Below, in pieces: positions 3,875 to 20,039 of a DNA stretch of 64,000 nt. Positions within the stretch are counted from its first letter, which is position 1; every line of letters starts with the position of its first letter. A model generated the notes under the pieces. The model did not search any database, was not told the DNA's origin, and saw only the letters and a program-made list of their open reading frames with translations. Both the position numbers and the translations under genes were made by a program. Source of the DNA: a virus; the IMG/VR virus record IMGVR_UViG_3300020171_000001, positions 32,001 to 96,000 of that record, one strand, 5' to 3'.

Positions 3875-4024
3875 CTCGAGCTACTTGCCCCGGCCCCAGC
3901 CTGGGGCAGCTGGAACGGTTCCCAGAGATGCTCCACGTCGCGGCCCTGGAGGTTAAAGCCGCTTCCAAGAAAGTTGGATAAACTTGGACAAAGGGGGCTT
4001 GACAGGGCTAACAGGAGGACTAAA

Positions 4025-4249
4025 ATGAGGGTGGTTTCAGTGAGCAGGACAGAGTTCAAAACGGAAGATGGCCAAGTTTACCCAATCGATCCGCCACTTA
4101 CGGAGGACATGACGCCGGATGAGTTCCAAGAGCACTATGACCTCGCTGCTGCCCTTGTCGGAAGCCTCCAGGCTTCTGGGGACAACGCCCCGAACACTGA
4201 GGCGCTGGGACGCAGCCGGAAAGATCAAGACGGTAAGGAGCCCCGGTAA
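4025..4249 (+). CDS. small acidic ORF overlapping tnpA 5' end
   Basis: Strong AGGAGG SD before ATG 4025; overlaps tnpA in another frame. Confidence 0.45.
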   Translation: MRVVSVSRTEFKTEDGQVYPIDPPLTEDMTPDEFQEHYDLAAALVGSLQASGDNAPNTEALGRSRKDQDGKEPR

Positions 4250-4763
4250 TCACCGGCTCATCCCCATGTCCGAGATTGAACGACTCCGAGGCGAAGACGC
4301 CATTCGTCGGACAGTTACGCTGACATACTGTCGCTGTTCCACACATAAACAAAAAGAGAACCTGGACAGACAGGTAGGCAGGCTCCTGGAGCACTGCCTC
4401 CAAGAAGGCTGGAAGCCAGAATTGTTCAAGGACATCGGCAGCGGCCTAAATGACAACCGCAAGCAGTTCAAGAAGCTCCTCAAGCGGATACCTGGCGGGG
4501 ACGTGAAACGGGTGTTGGTGGAGTACAAGGACAGATTATGTCACTATGGATTCACGGTGTTCCAGGGTTACTGCGAGGGCTTGGGTGTTGACGTGGTGGT
4601 GCTAGAGGAGCAAGAGCATAAGGAATTTGAGCAAGAGTTTGCCCAGGACGTAGTGGCTCTAATCGCGTCCTTCTCAGCCAGACTGTATGGGAGAAGGGGC
4701 GGTAGGAAAAAAGTGTTAGTTGCTGCCACGGAGAAGCCAACGGGAGATGGAAACGATGGCTGA
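4119..4763 (+). CDS. tnpA: IS607 transposase (MerR-type HTH plus serine recombinase)
   Basis: EASRLLG..PRTLRRWD HTH; YCRCST catalytic motif; DIGSGLN; YKDRL; SFSARLYGRR. Confidence 0.92.
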   Translation: MSSKSTMTSLLPLSEASRLLGTTPRTLRRWDAAGKIKTVRSPGNHRLIPMSEIERLRGEDAIRRTVTLTYCRCSTHKQKENLDRQVGRLLEHCLQEGWKPELFKDIGSGLNDNRKQFKKLLKRIPGGDVKRVLVEYKDRLCHYGFTVFQGYCEGLGVDVVVLEEQEHKEFEQEFAQDVVALIASFSARLYGRRGGRKKVLVAATEKPTGDGNDG

Positions 4764-4980
4764 ATCCTGGGAGCGCGGACATCGCACCTTTTGGGATGGC
4801 AAAGTGTGGCGCTATAAGGACACGGGAGAGGCGGCGACGGGAAAACGCTCGTGTGCTCGTTGCGGGAAACCCCCTACAGGGGATGGGCACGATGCCTGCC
4901 TTGGCTGTGTTCCTGGGGCCACATCAGCCTGTTGTGGGCATGGCGTCCACAATCCTATTTGCTGCGTAATGAGTAGTTGA
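4756..4980 (+). CDS. Cys-rich phage-type hypothetical protein (cargo between tnpA and tnpB)
   Basis: CARC...GHDACLG..PG...ACCGHG motif; overlaps tnpA stop and abuts tnpB start. Confidence 0.6.
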   Translation: MAESWERGHRTFWDGKVWRYKDTGEAATGKRSCARCGKPPTGDGHDACLGCVPGATSACCGHGVHNPICCVMSS

Positions 4981-6180
4981 GTGATCCTCTCCCACAAAAT
5001 ACGGCTGATCCCATCTCCGGCCCAGGAAGACTACTTCCGACGGGCCTGTGGTACAGCCAGGTTCACGTACAACTGGGCACTGGCTGCTTGGAAGAAAGCC
5101 TACGAGGCGGGAGAGAAACCCAATGGGCGAAGCCTAAAGATCAATTTCAACGCTCTTCGGAAAGTTGAACTGCCCTGGACTTACGACGTTCACCGAGACT
5201 GTACTGCGGGTGCCTTTGACAATCTCCAAGGTGCCTTCCAACACTTCTTCAGGCGAGTGAAAGCGGGCGAGAAACCGGGCTATCCAAAGTTCAAGAAAAA
5301 GGGATTGGCGAAGGATAGCTTCAGCATCGCCAATGACAAGTTCAGCCTCGATGGCAAGAATATCCGGGTGCCCAAGTTGGGCTGGGTCAAGATGCGGGAG
5401 ACTCTTCGCTTCACTGGGAAGATCATGTCCGCCGTGGTGAGCCGAACGGCGGGCCAGTGGTTTGCGGCTATCGCTGTAGATACTGAAGTCATCTCCCAGC
5501 CCCCGAAAGCCAAAGGGGCTATTGGAGTTGATCTTGGGATCTCAGCATTGGCCACGATGTCCGATGGAAGGAAGGTTCAACATTCTAGCAAGTGGGGGAA
5601 TCTGGAGAAACAAGTCAGGCGACTTCAGAAATCCGTGAGCCGGAAACAAAAAGGATCTGCAAGTAGACGCAAAGCCGTAGGCAAGCTGGCTCGGAAGCAC
5701 CTGGAGTTAGCCAACCTCCGAAATGATCTGCTGCACAAAACCACAACAGACTTGGTGCAGGGGCACCAAGGGATTGTAATTGAAGATCTCAATGTCCGAG
5801 GAATGGTCAAGAACCATTGTCTGGCACGTTCCATCTCCCGACAGGGGTGGGCTGAGTTTCGTCGCCAGCTTGAGTACAAGTCCTCGATGCACGGCAGGGA
5901 TTTGGTAATTGCGGACAGGTATTACCCTTCGACGAAGACATGCTCGGGTTGCGGGGCGATCAAGCCTGTTGCTCTATCCGAACGTGTTTACAAGTGCCCT
6001 GTCTGTGGGTTGGCCATAGACAGGGATTTCAACGCAGCAATAAATCTTTCAAGACTACGGGCGGGTAGCTCGGATGTTAAGCCGGTGGAGATGGAAGCTC
6101 TGGCCAGTGGTAGTATCGCTGGTGAAACTGCTGTCTATGAAGCCGGAACAGGGAGTGGACCGCTTTGTCCAACTTCTTGA
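4981..6180 (+). CDS. tnpB: RNA-guided endonuclease TnpB
   Basis: N-terminal KIRLIP..Q..F...G.ARF.YN; RuvC D (GVDLG), E (IEDL), D (DRDFNAA); CSGC/CPVC Zn finger. Confidence 0.93.
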   Translation: MILSHKIRLIPSPAQEDYFRRACGTARFTYNWALAAWKKAYEAGEKPNGRSLKINFNALRKVELPWTYDVHRDCTAGAFDNLQGAFQHFFRRVKAGEKPGYPKFKKKGLAKDSFSIANDKFSLDGKNIRVPKLGWVKMRETLRFTGKIMSAVVSRTAGQWFAAIAVDTEVISQPPKAKGAIGVDLGISALATMSDGRKVQHSSKWGNLEKQVRRLQKSVSRKQKGSASRRKAVGKLARKHLELANLRNDLLHKTTTDLVQGHQGIVIEDLNVRGMVKNHCLARSISRQGWAEFRRQLEYKSSMHGRDLVIADRYYPSTKTCSGCGAIKPVALSERVYKCPVCGLAIDRDFNAAINLSRLRAGSSDVKPVEMEALASGSIAGETAVYEAGTGSGPLCPTS

Positions 6181-6444
6181 AACCAGCTGTCAGAGATGCT
6201 GGAAGCTCTTCGACATGGGGATCCGCAGAGCAAAAGCATTCCGGGTTTCACACACGTCGCTGAGGAAGCGGCTGACCTCATGATCCGGCTGCTGGACTTC
6301 TGCGGCGCTCGGGGTATTCCGTTGGGTGCAGCTGTTCTGGCCAAGCATGCCTTCAACCAGACCCGCCCGCGCAAGCACGGCAAAGCATTTTAATCGCGGG
6401 CCTGCGGGCCCGCGGGTCCAGCGCAGCCCTTTGAAAAAAAATAG

Positions 6445-15804: not shown

Positions 15805-16409
15805 CCGCCATTTACGCGACGCTGAGGAGGTCGTGATGAGCGCATGTGAGAGATGCTGGGCCGAAGCCGGGGGCAACGCAGGCGAGTACCGGCGGCTGTT
15901 GTCGCTTCGCTCCTGCACACCTGAGCAGCAGGCGGGGCCAGACGCGGGGCTGTGCCTGCATTGTGGCCGGAGAACTCGGCACCAACACACCGGCGAGTGC
16001 ATGGTCCATGGCTGCGACGAGCGCCGGATGATGCTCAACGAGGAGCCAAGACGATGACCACCAAGCGCAAGCCGACCAAAGATTTCCCGCCCATCGGGTG
16101 GCGTGGCCTGAAACGTCACGGCAAGGGCGCGTGGCGAGAGACAAGACGGCATGATGACACCTCCTGGAGCGTGGGGCATGGGTGGCCGTGCGGTGGAATG
16201 CCATCTGAGGTCGCACCTCTCCCGGGCGAGACATGGCCAGGCGAGGATGCGCCCGAGCAAGAGATCGAGCGGCTGCGCAATGCCATGACGGCTGCGCTTG
16301 CCATCTTCGAGGACCGGGAGCGGTTCATGGTGATGGGGCCGCTCGGGACACTGCAAGCGACGCGGATTTTACGGGCGGCGCTGGAGACGGCCCGACACGG
16401 GAGCGACCG

Positions 16410-16592
16410 ATGACGACGAAAAACCTTGAGACGATCTTGGCCCGAACGCTACTGGCGTTGCAAGGATACCGGCGCGGCGATCATGGCGACTGGCATGACC
16501 CGGCGCATGCGGCGGCCGTGCGCGCGAGCCTGGACGCCACGAGGGCGCTAGCCGCGTGGCGGCAGACCCCGAAAGTGGACAAAAGGCGATGA
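16410..16592 (+). CDS. small hypothetical protein (paralog of 18078-18284)
   Basis: ATGA overlaps at both ends; HAAAVRASLD..RALA.WRQT. Confidence 0.55.
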   Translation: MTTKNLETILARTLLALQGYRRGDHGDWHDPAHAAAVRASLDATRALAAWRQTPKVDKRR

Positions 16593-16834
16593 CCGCCGTG
16601 TATGCGATAGACCCCGGCCCGGTGCAGAGCGCCTATGTGCTGATGGTCGAGCGCGAGATCGACGACCACGGCATTGTGGAGAACGTCGAATTGCTGGAGC
16701 GCATCTGGCGCCGCGATGCGCCGCAGACGTTGGCCATCGAGATGATCGCCAGCTACGGGATGCCCGTCGGTCGTGAGGTGTTCGAGACGTGCACGTTTTT
16801 CATTTCAACAGTTGGCTTTGCGGCGCCCATGTGA
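16589..16834 (+). pseudogene. truncated RuvC-like Holliday junction resolvase (5' half)
   Basis: AIDPG..SAYV, AIEMIASYGMPVGREVFETC, then abrupt switch to low-GC sequence. Confidence 0.8.
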
Positions 16835-16947
16835 ATATGATGTTTTTGCGTGTGGCTATACCTGTAACCCGTTATGTCTCCTCTCCGGCGGTGACCCTCC
16901 TGGGCCACACGCAACCGCCGGTTGAGGGGGCATCATCGGCGGATGTC

Positions 16948-17484
16948 ATGGAAACAAAAGTATGTTCAAGATGTAGGACGCCAAAAGCAATATCATTTTT
17001 TAGTAAGCACTCCCGTGGAACATTTGGCGTACAAGCATACTGCAAAGAATGTGTACACAGCCACTATCTTGAACACAAAGAGGATGTTTTTGCGCGTGCG
17101 CGCAGGCGCAGATCAGCCGAGTCCGGGAGAGAGCAAGAACGCAAGTGGCAGCGTGATAGAAGAACAAACTTCCCTATTAAGCGAATGATCCAAGAGGCAT
17201 CTGTACGTGCGCGAAAACGTGGATTTGATTTTAATTTAACTGAAGATGATTTAACAATGCCTGAATTTTGTCCAGTTCTTGGAATAAGGCTTGAGCGCAA
17301 GGGTTTTCCAAGAGCTGATTCCAGTCCATCTATTGATCGGATTGATTCACACAGGGGGTACATAAAGGGGAATGTTATTATTATAAGTTGGCGGGCGAAT
17401 AGAATTAAAAGCGATGCAACGCTTGAAGAATTGGAACTTATCGCGGCGTTCTATAGGAAAATTCATGAGAATTCTTGCAGTTGA
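16948..17484 (+). CDS. HNH-like (His-Me finger) homing endonuclease
   Basis: N-terminal CSRC..CKEC; CPVLG, SPSIDRIDS..GY.KGNV.IIS.RAN..K; low GC. Confidence 0.8.
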   Translation: METKVCSRCRTPKAISFFSKHSRGTFGVQAYCKECVHSHYLEHKEDVFARARRRRSAESGREQERKWQRDRRTNFPIKRMIQEASVRARKRGFDFNLTEDDLTMPEFCPVLGIRLERKGFPRADSSPSIDRIDSHRGYIKGNVIIISWRANRIKSDATLEELELIAAFYRKIHENSCS

Positions 17485-17971
17485 TCCAGGCCCGCAGCGT
17501 TCTGCGTGGGTCGTAATTAACGAAGATGGATCCAGTCATCCTCTGGTTGTAAGTTTTGCACTGGAGCCAAACGATGATTTGCTAGCCCGTATTCGAGAGC
17601 AGCGTTTTTGCTCACCACCGCTTCCTATGCACTGCGCTATGGAGATGGTGGCCAGTTACGGGATGCCCGTTGGGCGCGAGGTGTTTGATACGGTGTGGTG
17701 GGCTGGTCGATTTGCGCAGTGCTTCGGAGCGGACTCAGTTGATCGGATTTACCGATTACAAGTCAAGTTGGCGATATGCAAAGACAGCAGGGCGAAAGAT
17801 AGCAACGTCCGCCAGGCGATCATTGACCGCTACCCGGCGACGGGCGGCGGCCGGGTGCCGCAGATCGGGACCAAGGCGAAGCCCGGACCGCTGTACGGGG
17901 TGCGGGCGGACGAGTGGGCCGCGATAGGCGTGGCCCTCACTTGGCTTGGACGGGCATCCAAGGAGAACTAA
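17465..17971 (+). CDS. RuvC-like Holliday junction resolvase (complete)
   Basis: ILAVDPG, EMVASYGMPVGREVF, VK...C....AKD.N.RQA, D.WAA.GVA. Confidence 0.85.
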   Translation: MRILAVDPGPQRSAWVVINEDGSSHPLVVSFALEPNDDLLARIREQRFCSPPLPMHCAMEMVASYGMPVGREVFDTVWWAGRFAQCFGADSVDRIYRLQVKLAICKDSRAKDSNVRQAIIDRYPATGGGRVPQIGTKAKPGPLYGVRADEWAAIGVALTWLGRASKEN

Positions 17972-18077
17972 AACGATGACCGCACCGTTTGCGCTCACGC
18001 CCCCGCTCTACGGCGGGGCACGGGACAACGATACTCCGCGTCCGAGATGAGCACGGGGCACAGAGCGAGGTGAAGCC

Positions 18078-18284
18078 ATGAGAAAGACGAAGACATCGAA
18101 CAAGGCCCTGTTCAACGAGGCGCGGCGGTTCCTGTCTGCTCTCGCGGACTACGATAACGCGGCAGATGTGAACCACTTCCATTGCCCCGAGCACGCGGCG
18201 GCGATGCGCGCATCGATGGACTTGTACCACGCACTGGCCCAGTGGCGACAGACGTCGCCCTACGACAAGCTGGAGAAAAAGTGA
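18078..18284 (+). CDS. small hypothetical protein (paralog of 16410-16592)
   Basis: GAGGTG SD; HAAAMRASMD..HALA.WRQT. Confidence 0.55.
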   Translation: MRKTKTSNKALFNEARRFLSALADYDNAADVNHFHCPEHAAAMRASMDLYHALAQWRQTSPYDKLEKK

Positions 18285-18562
18285 TGATGAAGCTACTCGA
18301 CTCGGTATTGCGTATTTCCGACCAAAGACCGCCGTTGTGGCTCGTGCAGGATGCCGAGCAGTTGGCACGACGGCATAACCGCCAAATTGACGAGCCGTGG
18401 CGGCACAGCTTCCGCCCGCTCCCCCGAACGCCGGGCGTGTGCGCCATCTGCTACCAGGTGGAACGGCGGCACCGGCTGCCGTTGTGGCGCCGGCTCGTTG
18501 CGTGGCTGGTGGGGGACGGAGCCATGCGCGAGACCCTGAGCAAGCGCGACAAGGATCTGTGA
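18284..18562 (+). CDS. small hypothetical protein (paralog of 19812-20039)
   Basis: RPPL.LV.DAE.LA...PWRH...PG.C..C.....HR.PLWRR.VAWLVG. Confidence 0.55.
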   Translation: MMKLLDSVLRISDQRPPLWLVQDAEQLARRHNRQIDEPWRHSFRPLPRTPGVCAICYQVERRHRLPLWRRLVAWLVGDGAMRETLSKRDKDL

Positions 18563-19811
18563 AGACCATGGCGAAGACCGAAGCGAAAAGACTGGCCGCA
18601 AAAGGGGTCGTTTCGAGACTGCAAGGAATCCTCGACGCAGGGTGGCCCCAGAACATGCGCGACGACAAGGACCCGCCCGAGAAGGGCGCAGATCTCCAGA
18701 GGACGCGGGATGGGATGGAGCAGCTGATCGCGGGCACCGAACGGACGTACCGAATTTAACGTGCAGAGGAGCAGCCAATGAACAAGCGCAGCGCCACGAA
18801 ATTGTGCCGGATCCTGGTAGACAGAGTAGTCGCGCAAGAGCAGGAGATCAACGTGCATCTCGGGCATCCGAGCGACTACCAGATCGGGTCGCTGACCGTG
18901 AGCGTGCGCTGGGATGTGCTCGCCACTGCCATCGGGTATTGCCCAAAGCCGCGGCCGGAAGGAGACGCGCTATGAGGCTAACCCTCGCCCGCATTTTTCT
19001 ACGGGACGCATCGCCCGCGCGCAGCCGCCAGGCTGCGCAGTTCGTCGCGCTATACCCACGCGGCGCTCCACCGTCGATAGAGGTGCTTGCACGACTCGCG
19101 GCCCACGAGTTCGACGTGATATCGCTGTTGCATCTTTTGCCAGTGCCACTGCTCCGCGGGTGGCTGCACGCAGTAGCCGGCGCTGACGCGCCCCGATATA
19201 TCGCAGAGTCTGCAACGCTGCTAGAGGCAGCGGAGACCGCGGCGACAGACGCAGAGGAAAACGCGTGGACGGCAGCGGCAGAGGCCGCGTCCGATGGCCG
19301 CCCGGACGTGCCCGATGGCGTCTGGCAGGCGGCCGGCGACAGCGCGGCAACCGCCGAGGAGGGGCGGCAGCTCGCGCTGCTCACCGGCGCGCTGGAAGAC
19401 GCGCGAGAGCACACCGCGGCGGGCGCCCGAACCAGGGTGCGGTCCGGTAGCAAGAGCAGCTATGGACTGCACCGAGGGCGAGGCACTGGCCGTGGCTCTG
19501 CGGGGGCAGTGCGTGGCGGCGCAGTGCCCGCGCGAGGACGTGCGGACGTGCGGCACTGCGAGCACGACGGCCCGCCGTGCGTGTGCGCCGGCGGCGGATG
19601 CCCTGATGACGAAATCAACGACCCGAGGAGGTAGCGATGCGCGAGATGACGCTGATCTTGATGTTGCCAGTCCGCGTGGACGTGCAGGTCGACGACGACG
19701 GGCGTGTCGCCCACGTCTTGTCGGCTGAAACGGACACCCCAAGTGAACGGGAAGTCGAGGAGGCCCTCGACGCGGAGGACCGGCTCCACGAGCTGGATGA
19801 GGGTGCGACCG

Positions 19812-20039
19812 ATGAGACGGAATAACACCGTGACCCGCATCACCGGCTGGCGCCCGCCGCTGCGCCTGGTGCGCGACGCGGAGCGGCTGGCCATGGACGC
19901 CTCGACGCCGTGGCGGCACGTCTTCCGGCACCACCAGCAGCTCCCCGGGATCTGCGACCTGTGCCTGCAGCCGCTGCACCGCCACCGGGCGCCGCTGTGG
20001 CGGCGGATCGTCGCGTGGCTGGTGGGGGTGGAGCCATGA
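19812..20039 (+). CDS. small hypothetical protein (paralog of 18284-18562)
   Basis: Same motif string as 18284-18562. Confidence 0.55.
   Translation: MRRNNTVTRITGWRPPLRLVRDAERLAMDASTPWRHVFRHHQQLPGICDLCLQPLHRHRAPLWRRIVAWLVGVEP

Follow-up and report, generated by a model that had tools for sequence, protein, structure and literature searches.

How does a phage come to carry two genes for a RuvC-like Holliday-junction resolvase in close succession, the first broken off at the most conserved motif of its family and the second complete, with a nuclease gene of foreign composition between them? This question is raised by a locus in the virus record IMGVR_UViG_3300020171_000001, of which we analyzed a 64-kb stretch (hereafter the window; bases 32001–96000 of the 157,287-bp record, with all positions given in window numbering). 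The locus is read on the + strand among small, tightly packed genes, and its structure is known from a single metagenome-assembled contig. The explanation that we favor, at a probability of roughly 0.55, is that a free-standing homing-endonuclease gene, encoding an HNH nuclease of the PacI type, came from a lower-GC donor phage and invaded the phage's own RuvC-like resolvase gene. The features of the locus are collected in Table 1.

A native stub, a low-GC insert and a chimeric resolvase gene

The first of the two resolvase genes, hereafter the stub, matched phrog_1770, a RuvC-like family of phage Holliday-junction resolvases, over its first 67–69 residues (E 4e-5), and its GC content at third codon positions (GC3) was 0.87–1.0. 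The frame crosses the most conserved stretch of the family, AIEM..SYGMPVGREVFET, and then the Cys of the family consensus, and there the similarity to the family ends; 13 unrelated codons follow the motif in the stub frame before a stop at 16832–16834. The left junction of the insert lies at 16790–16793, directly after the left copy of a 57-nt direct repeat, with similarity lost abruptly past the ACG at 16789. Of the acidic residues, the native part of the stub (16589–16793) keeps D7 and the E of AIEM only, and it lacks D112 and D121 together with the helix that follows the motif (helix 71–87 in the predicted model of the second resolvase). Judged from this model, the stub should be inactive, and RuvC structures suggest that it could not take part in a dimer either. 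It is probably still translated, since the stop codon of the small gene upstream (X1) overlaps its start at 16589 (ATGA). We found no close relative and no nuclease-free allele of the native gene, the best matches reaching about 60% identity in the protein database, 57% among viral contigs, and 61% among metagenome contigs.

Beyond the junction the composition changes. Positions 16801–17800 have a GC content of 0.47, the lowest of any stretch of the window (mean 0.639), with 150-nt segments between about 16850 and 17700 at 0.39–0.55; the second-lowest stretch, at about 4000–6200, has a GC content of 0.52–0.55. The GC3 of the nuclease gene is 0.07–0.6. The insert is compositionally foreign. It opens with an orphan spacer, for which blastn and tblastx comparisons with the rest of the phage and with about 250 fetched loci detected no similarity, and which contains a weak promoter-like site (TTGGCT-18-TATGAT, 16812–16841; 9/12 match in a promoter scan) and, just 5′ of the nuclease ATG, a GC-rich hairpin whose fold did not differ significantly from that of shuffled sequences (z −1.26). 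The spacer is followed by an intact nuclease gene and an intact second resolvase gene. The 3′ end of the former and the 5′ end of the latter overlap by 20 nt inside the low-GC block, indicating that the nuclease and the start of the second resolvase arrived together.

A nuclease gene lying inside a conserved gene, at a conserved motif, is also what a group I intron or an intein interrupting one resolvase gene would present, and both were considered and rejected. For the intron, no Rfam family matched at E ≤ 1 over 16000–18500, and the insert contains a second gene start and no ribozyme; for the intein, the stop in the stub frame lies 13 codons past the junction, and there was no match to a Pfam Hint or intein model. 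The insert moreover encodes the N-terminal 76 residues a second time, in divergent form and behind a separate Shine–Dalgarno sequence and ATG, and we give next to no weight to an interruption of either kind.

The second resolvase went unrecognized by Pfam and NCBIfam models and matched phrog_1770 with an E-value of 1.3e-13; it shares the motif with the stub protein, to which it is 44% identical over 75 residues. Its predicted structure had a predicted local distance difference test (pLDDT) score of 95.8, and the ten best fold matches were bacterial RuvC proteins (Deinococcus, Thermus, and E. coli; probability 1.00, template modeling score [TM-score] 0.60–0.69). None of the family-invariant acidic residues (D7, E60, D112, and D121) is missing. 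The phage has no other full-length resolvase of this family, the sole further match in the genome being a partial one, to the stub. Because it is the only complete family member in the phage and its model has the RuvC fold, resolvase function was probably preserved in this gene.

The second resolvase gene is not homogeneous along its length. GC3 is 0.35 over codons 1–54, about 0.8 over the motif, about 0.4 over codons 81–100, and 0.87–1.0 (around 0.9) from about codon 105 on; the change points fell at 17762–17804, and the observed likelihood gain was reached by none of 5000 shuffles in a permutation test. Among 231 homologues, the best match to amino acids 1–100 was an outlier, P0002, at 65/81/75% identity in three segments compared with 43/81/55% for the next best, and over amino acids 101–160 the same protein ranks 86th. 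Residues common only to the second resolvase and P0002 number 21 in amino acids 2–93 and 2 thereafter (Fisher test, ~5e-4, cut at residue 100), and from amino acid 102 on, the second resolvase repeatedly has the family-common residue where P0002 diverges. P0002, which is 67% identical to the second resolvase overall, is encoded by an uninterrupted gene on a phage fragment of 65% GC (L038) that has no nuclease. In a tree of the N-terminal part (90 columns), the two proteins formed a clade (Shimodaira–Hasegawa-like approximate likelihood ratio test [SH-aLRT] support of 99.5), and in a tree of the C-terminal part (62 columns), the second resolvase was nearest to other homologues. The latter tree is too short to reject a P0002 clade (approximately unbiased [AU] test, p 0.59), so that the case for chimerism is carried mainly by composition and by where the shared rare residues fall. 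It is mainly from these two lines of evidence that the right-hand crossover, from foreign to native-type sequence, was placed at 17744–17804. The sequence past this interval presumably derives from the phage's own gene, as its original 3′ end, an origin read from composition because no close relative of the native gene was present in the collections searched. A correlation, across homologues, of stub identity with 3′-part identity was dropped, the homologue set having been chosen by those same identities.

The two copies of the 57-nt repeat bracket the insert, 903 bp apart, and are identical at 47 of 57 nt (82%). The motif DNA is the most similar DNA between the two resolvase copies, identity outside it being about 60%, and at the protein level the right copy is P0002-like (CA.EMV, TVWW) and not stub-like. 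An earlier, sequence-only reading of this DNA had regarded the motif of the second copy as recoded to resist cleavage, an idea that was overstated. Nine of the 19 third codon positions, and 10/57 nt overall, differ between the copies, and to judge from these sequences the differences are the ordinary synonymous divergence expected of distant homologues, not adaptive recoding; the same 10 differences could shield the new copy from a sequence-specific enzyme. A further candidate for a repeated stub, just after the resolvase stop (17974–17993, resembling the start of the stub), was rejected, as the resemblance is confined to 14 nt around the start codon (shuffle p ~0.03) and is read here as translation-start context in common.

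Two copies of one motif on a single metagenome-assembled contig, with a protein that occurs on that contig only, could also reflect an assembly chimera in which reads from a lower-GC phage were joined to the contig via the shared motif. However, the motif copies match exactly over at most 14 nt, too few for a k-mer misjoin, and two joins would be required, the right one in a repeat-free region. The product, moreover, is an in-frame, complete RuvC gene predicted to fold well, and the 157,287-bp record is closed by direct terminal repeats, with a completeness rating of 100%. We consider an artifact of this kind very improbable.

In its description of the locus, the sequence-only reading was confirmed apart from the recoding, with every element at the coordinates that it gave. 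It had described a high-GC resolvase that halts just past its conserved motif, about 1 kb of low-GC DNA carrying an HNH-like nuclease and a second, divergent resolvase N-terminus with the same motif, and a return to high GC for the C-terminus, with neither intron nor intein, and it had taken the second resolvase to be heterogeneous along its length. The comparison with nuclease-free relatives that it proposed could be made in part, with the uninterrupted gene of P0002, but no close nuclease-free allele was available (best about 61%).

Table 1. Features of the resolvase locus, in window numbering, and resolvase–nuclease gene pairs at six loci of close nuclease relatives, in the numbering of each locus.
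Feature	Sequence	Positions	Strand	Remarks
Native small gene X1	window	16410–16592	+	GC 0.65–0.70; directly upstream of stub
Stub of the phage's own RuvC-like resolvase gene	window	16589–16834	+	81 amino acids; codons 1–67/68 (16589–16793) native
Left (native) copy of 57-nt direct repeat	window	16733–16789	+	codes for AIEM..SYGMPVGREVFET motif
Orphan spacer, 157 bp	window	16791–16947	+	GC ~0.55; from junction to nuclease start
Free-standing PacI-type HNH (beta-beta-alpha-metal) nuclease gene	window	16948–17484	+	178 amino acids
Complete chimeric RuvC-like resolvase gene	window	17465–17971	+	168 amino acids; own Shine–Dalgarno sequence (AGGAAA) and ATG
Foreign 5′ part of resolvase gene, codons 1–93	window	17465–17743	+	low GC3; P0002-only residues; P0002 clade
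Right (foreign-lineage) copy of 57-nt motif repeat	window	17636–17692	+	from repeat search
Right-hand crossover interval, foreign to native-type	window	17744–17804	+	last P0002-specific cluster ends at amino acid 93; first family-common, non-P0002 residue is amino acid 102
3′ part of resolvase gene, native composition	window	17805–17971	+	GC3 0.87–1.0, like stub and neighboring genes
RusA-like gene, then nuclease	L040	854–1950		
RusA-like gene, then nuclease	L041	685–1778		
RusA-like gene, then nuclease	L042	166–1088		
RuvC-like gene, then nuclease	L043	1466–2760		
RuvC-like gene, then nuclease	L045	3064–4019		
RuvC-like gene, then nuclease	L046	980–1967		

A PacI-type nuclease and its distribution

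No Pfam or NCBIfam model recognized the nuclease. Among the PHROG families it matched phrog_3322 ("endonuclease," 2.8e-37) and phrog_1035 (1e-27), and the families matched are annotated as "endonuclease," "endonuclease VII," and "HNH endonuclease," with no NinG family among them. In the protein, a 4-Cys zinc knuckle at the N-terminus is followed by a basic helical linker and then by the C-terminal core (SIDRID..GY..N..ISWRANRIKSD), and this combination of zinc knuckle, basic linker, and HNH-type core is reminiscent of lambda NinG/Rap. Alignment of 31 relatives gave C6, C9, C32, C35, G137, Y138, N142, N151, and K154 as family invariants, none of them a histidine and all of them present here; the core residues D130 and R131 are present as well. 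A profile of the family found the restriction endonuclease PacI (3ldy; E 6e-4) over the core ..DR.D...GY...N......NRIKS.., and PacI (3ldy) was also the top Foldseek match, with a probability of 0.99, for the predicted structure of the nuclease (pLDDT 94.5). In view of these matches, the 178-aa protein is best read as an active HNH nuclease of the PacI type.

PacI is the reference beta-beta-alpha-metal nuclease with a loop tyrosine in place of the catalytic histidine (PMC5714182). Like PacI (3ldy/3m7k; His-Me finger group 20, PMC5714182), the nuclease has D-R for D-H, a conserved G-Y, N..N..K, and a Cys4 zinc site. In PacI, the tyrosine of the G-Y pair takes over the role of the missing histidine, and the corresponding Y138 is invariant in 32 relatives. 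The nuclease differs from PacI in its long basic helical linker and in having a different N-terminal zinc knuckle; sequence identity between the two is 18%, and the whole-chain TM-score is low, at 0.36–0.44. PacI, furthermore, is a cellular restriction enzyme and not a phage homing enzyme. By analogy with PacI, the nuclease would be expected to act at a specific site. To our knowledge, no homing enzyme of the PacI type has been characterized.

The nuclease frame is also open for 53 codons 5′ of the ATG, to a GTG at the junction (16789–16947), and the public gene call corresponds to this 231-aa form. The 178-aa form appears more likely, because the M..K.C..C position is where every one of the 31 aligned relatives begins.

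The nuclease is present in a single copy in the 157-kb genome, and its family was found in 106 of 50,697 phage records, with hosts that include Ralstonia, Streptomyces, Synechococcus, Caulobacter, and Escherichia. The family members that we inspected adjoin genes for ribonucleotide reductase, DNA polymerase, primase/helicase, or structural proteins, sometimes with several copies per genome. The present locus was compared with 191 other RuvC-like loci and with 48 nuclease loci, the latter made up of the 7 closest relatives and 41 more distant family members. At none of the 191 RuvC-like loci was there a member of the nuclease family within 4–6 kb, so that the nuclease does not regularly accompany this resolvase family; likewise, no resolvase neighbor was found at any of the 41 loci of more distant nucleases.

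The closest relatives are thinly sampled, the best identity being 55%. Those with genomic context, seven in number and 46–55% identical to the nuclease, resolved into seven distinct loci and a duplicate locus without its upstream side (L044). At six of the seven distinct loci, the nuclease gene lies directly 3′ of a Holliday-junction resolvase gene, with an overlap or a 3-nt gap (Table 1), and the genes downstream of these six nucleases vary by locus. Nucleases about 60% identical to one another follow resolvases that are not homologous, being RusA-like in some cases and RuvC-like in others. The GC content of five close relatives of the nuclease (four distinct proteins) is slightly below that of their own loci. 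An address that is specific to a subclade and lies beside one kind of conserved gene fits a homing lineage, and the consistent tie of this PacI-type subclade to resolvase genes gives it a defined candidate target.

Several further features were observed in the course of these comparisons. One protein of the nuclease family, P0234 (L047 659–1483, 274 aa), is without the N-terminal zinc knuckle and contains two tandem PacI-type nuclease cores in one polypeptide. In the T7-like Ralstonia phage RsoP1EGY (L048, NC_047946.1 19.2–22.6 kb), gp26 is a member of the family and the record has two matching places; gp21 and gp23 nearby are also annotated as "endonuclease," beside an annotated endonuclease VII and a gp2.5-like single-stranded DNA-binding protein. 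Among the RuvC-like loci, a Chloroflexia prophage remnant (L010 5625–6282) has a 713-bp deletion relative to the 94%-identical L004 (646–2014), and this deletion begins just past a canonical HNH gene and ends in the RuvC-like gene at codon ~55, where the same conserved motif starts. The RuvC-like gene of L012 is cut after residue 86, and that of L011 has a frameshift.

Origin of the arrangement

In the scenario that we favor, the donor would have carried the nuclease gene directly upstream of, and overlapping, its own resolvase gene, an order that follows from the overlap of the nuclease stop and the resolvase start inside the low-GC block. A double-strand break would have been made in the recipient gene at or beside the conserved motif-coding sequence, which would account for the native stub breaking off no more than 4 nt from where the conserved stretch ends. 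The downstream end would then have invaded the donor via the conserved 3′ half of the resolvase, with a crossover at about 17744–17804, so that donor sequence would run some 50–110 bp past the motif as a co-conversion tract. The upstream end may have been joined without homology, because DNA identity to the donor outside the motif is only about 60%; this join would have occurred right after the motif (16790–16793), to a point in the donor DNA 157 bp before the nuclease gene. The product would be a native 5′ stub ending at the motif, followed by the spacer, the nuclease, and the donor 5′ part of the resolvase, and then by the native 3′ part. That this nuclease made the break, and that the break lay at this position, is what we infer from the arrangement. 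As far as the sequence indicates, the nuclease has the traits of a free-standing homing endonuclease, namely a predicted active site that is intact, sporadic occurrence, and flanking co-conversion. In a variant of the scenario, the donor would already have had a copy of the motif to the left of the spacer, giving two homology arms and a stub remade at every invasion; we rate this variant lower because no other instance was found.

The same product would be obtained whatever agent made the break, and ordinary phage mosaicism, which we hold to be on the unlikely side, remains a substantial rival, including in the form in which the nuclease is a passenger. According to this explanation, a spacer–nuclease–resolvase segment from a lower-GC phage recombined into the resident gene, with a homologous right crossover in the conserved 3′ half and an illegitimate left join. 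The HNH protein would then be either a homing enzyme whose target lies elsewhere or, as its architecture may suggest, a recombination nuclease of the Rap/NinG kind that accompanies resolvases. That the nuclease subclade is tied to two non-homologous resolvase families fits such a functional or positional link better than it fits one DNA target, and the failure to find a second cassette at the 191 RuvC-like and 48 nuclease loci is also in line with mosaicism. However, an illegitimate left join that leaves a working gene was possible anywhere in about 335 bp, and the join observed lies no more than 4 nt from the end of the 57-nt stretch. An obligate partnership between nuclease and resolvase is unlikely as well, given the absence of the nuclease from the neighborhood of the 191 RuvC-like genes and of a resolvase from that of the 41 distant family members, and the PHROG matches of the nuclease are to endonuclease families and not to NinG. 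In addition, its nearest solved relative, PacI, is sequence-specific (PMC5714182).

The sequence-only reading had gone further and proposed a selfish element that supplies a replacement for the 5′ half of its target gene. What stands of this proposal is that the nuclease and a replacement 5′ part are carried together; that this would be a built-in, recurrent property was not supported, as no second instance was found. If it were such a property, the locus would be one copy of a mobile cassette with the motif as its left homology arm and the 3′ half of the resolvase as its right arm, and every homing event would remake the stub, the nuclease, and the replacement 5′ part. The 57-nt repeat exactly brackets a 903-bp unit, and the design is known, in mirror image, in the mORF elements of fungal mitochondria (PMC3630166). 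Against this, a second RuvC fragment or a nuclease was found at none of the 191 RuvC-like loci, and resolvases flanked the nuclease on both sides at none of the 48 nuclease loci. That the stub keeps its native composition right up to the junction would be expected just as much of a one-off event. We judge a recurrent cassette to be quite unlikely, and we are correspondingly doubtful that there is a class of self-propagating phage elements in which a PacI-type HNH homing endonuclease always comes with the replacement 5′ portion of the resolvase that it cuts, the motif serving as the left arm.

Several points also weigh against invasion by a homing endonuclease, the reading that we prefer, in addition to the shortness of the C-terminal tree noted above. 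The native sequence directly 3′ of the break is gone, and the intact target cannot be reconstructed. Neither a donor nor a nuclease-free allele of the phage was found, the best relative of the stub being about 61% identical. At all six loci at which a close relative of the nuclease adjoins a resolvase gene, an intact resolvase gene precedes the nuclease gene and neither a stub nor a further resolvase is seen; this order of resolvase and nuclease is the opposite of that seen here. The resolvase address spans two unrelated families that occupy one and the same slot of lambdoid phages, in the nin region, and it could be positional and not target-based. A second copy of the cassette was present at none of the 191 RuvC-like or 48 nuclease loci, so that the recurrence in other genomes and genes that characterizes mORFs was not seen. 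Homing cleavage at the motif, finally, is a proposal suggested by the sequence.

Outside the insert, small-gene paralogs occur around the locus. The gene upstream of the stub (16410–16592) and a gene at 18078–18284, which starts about 100 bp downstream of the chimeric resolvase, are 44–46% identical, with a common core (..H...HAAA.RAS.D...ALA.WRQT..), and this pair represents old duplicates. A second pair of paralogous small open reading frames lies downstream of the locus (18281–18562 and 19704–20039), with the common motif ..PPL.LV.DAE.LA.....PWRH.F.....PG.C..C.....RHR.PLWRR.VAWLVG...

Comparison with known systems

In the usual view, homing endonucleases affect phage genomes mainly through clean gene conversion or the splitting of genes. 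If the scenario favored here is correct, the locus would be a fresh, un-ameliorated product of another outcome, in which the nuclease gene brought along the 5′ portion of its neighbor gene from a foreign allele. It would show that a break repaired with homology on one side can yield chimeric core genes and partial duplications in phages.

Among phage systems, the free-standing endonucleases of the T4 type (Seg and Mob) provide the precedent for intron-less homing, in which a break in an allele lacking the nuclease is mended by copying from the donor, with co-conversion of flanking markers (PMC2988022, PMC2790892). As in the T4-type cases, the nuclease gene here adjoins a conserved DNA-metabolism gene, its distribution is sporadic, and the flanking sequence shows apparent co-conversion. 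In contrast with the present locus, classical homing involves homology on both sides and leaves no duplicated fragment of the target. A review of T4 describes gene splitting (mobE in nrdA, mobA in gene 60) and no layout of a stub plus a replacement (PMC2988022). Literature searches aimed at the layout found no phage case of a stub, a nuclease, and a replacement 5′ end in a protein-coding gene, which is not proof of absence.

The closest parallel in layout is found in fungal mitochondria, where mORF elements carry a foreign C-terminal end of atp6, atp9, cox2, or nad3, the resulting hybrid is expressed, and the native C-terminus is left downstream (PMC3630166). In mORFs (Allomyces macrogynus atp6; Glomus atp6, atp9, cox2, and nad3; PMC3630166 and the 1994 Allomyces work cited there) as in the phage locus, a free-standing endonuclease gene is combined with a foreign replacement gene end, the host gene is a hybrid, and the displaced native end is kept alongside as a non-functional duplicate, with the two copies strongly diverged in DNA. 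The phage arrangement is the mirror image, however: mORFs replace the 3′ end of the gene and leave the native end downstream, whereas the phage locus has a replaced 5′ part, with the native 5′ end left upstream. The nucleases also differ, those of mORFs being of the LAGLIDADG or GIY-YIG type and often in frame with the host gene, and the one described here being of the PacI-type HNH kind with its own start, as do the settings, a mitochondrion in one case and a double-stranded DNA phage in the other. Recurrence and mobility are documented for mORFs, and the locus described here is a single instance. Were the doubtful possibility of a self-propagating class of such elements to prove true, they would be the phage, protein-gene, 5′-end counterpart of the fungal mORFs and a route by which homing enzymes drive the chimeric evolution of core genes. 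Through the anatomy of this single locus, the mORF design already reaches beyond mitochondria to a phage, and beyond 3′ ends to a 5′ gene end.

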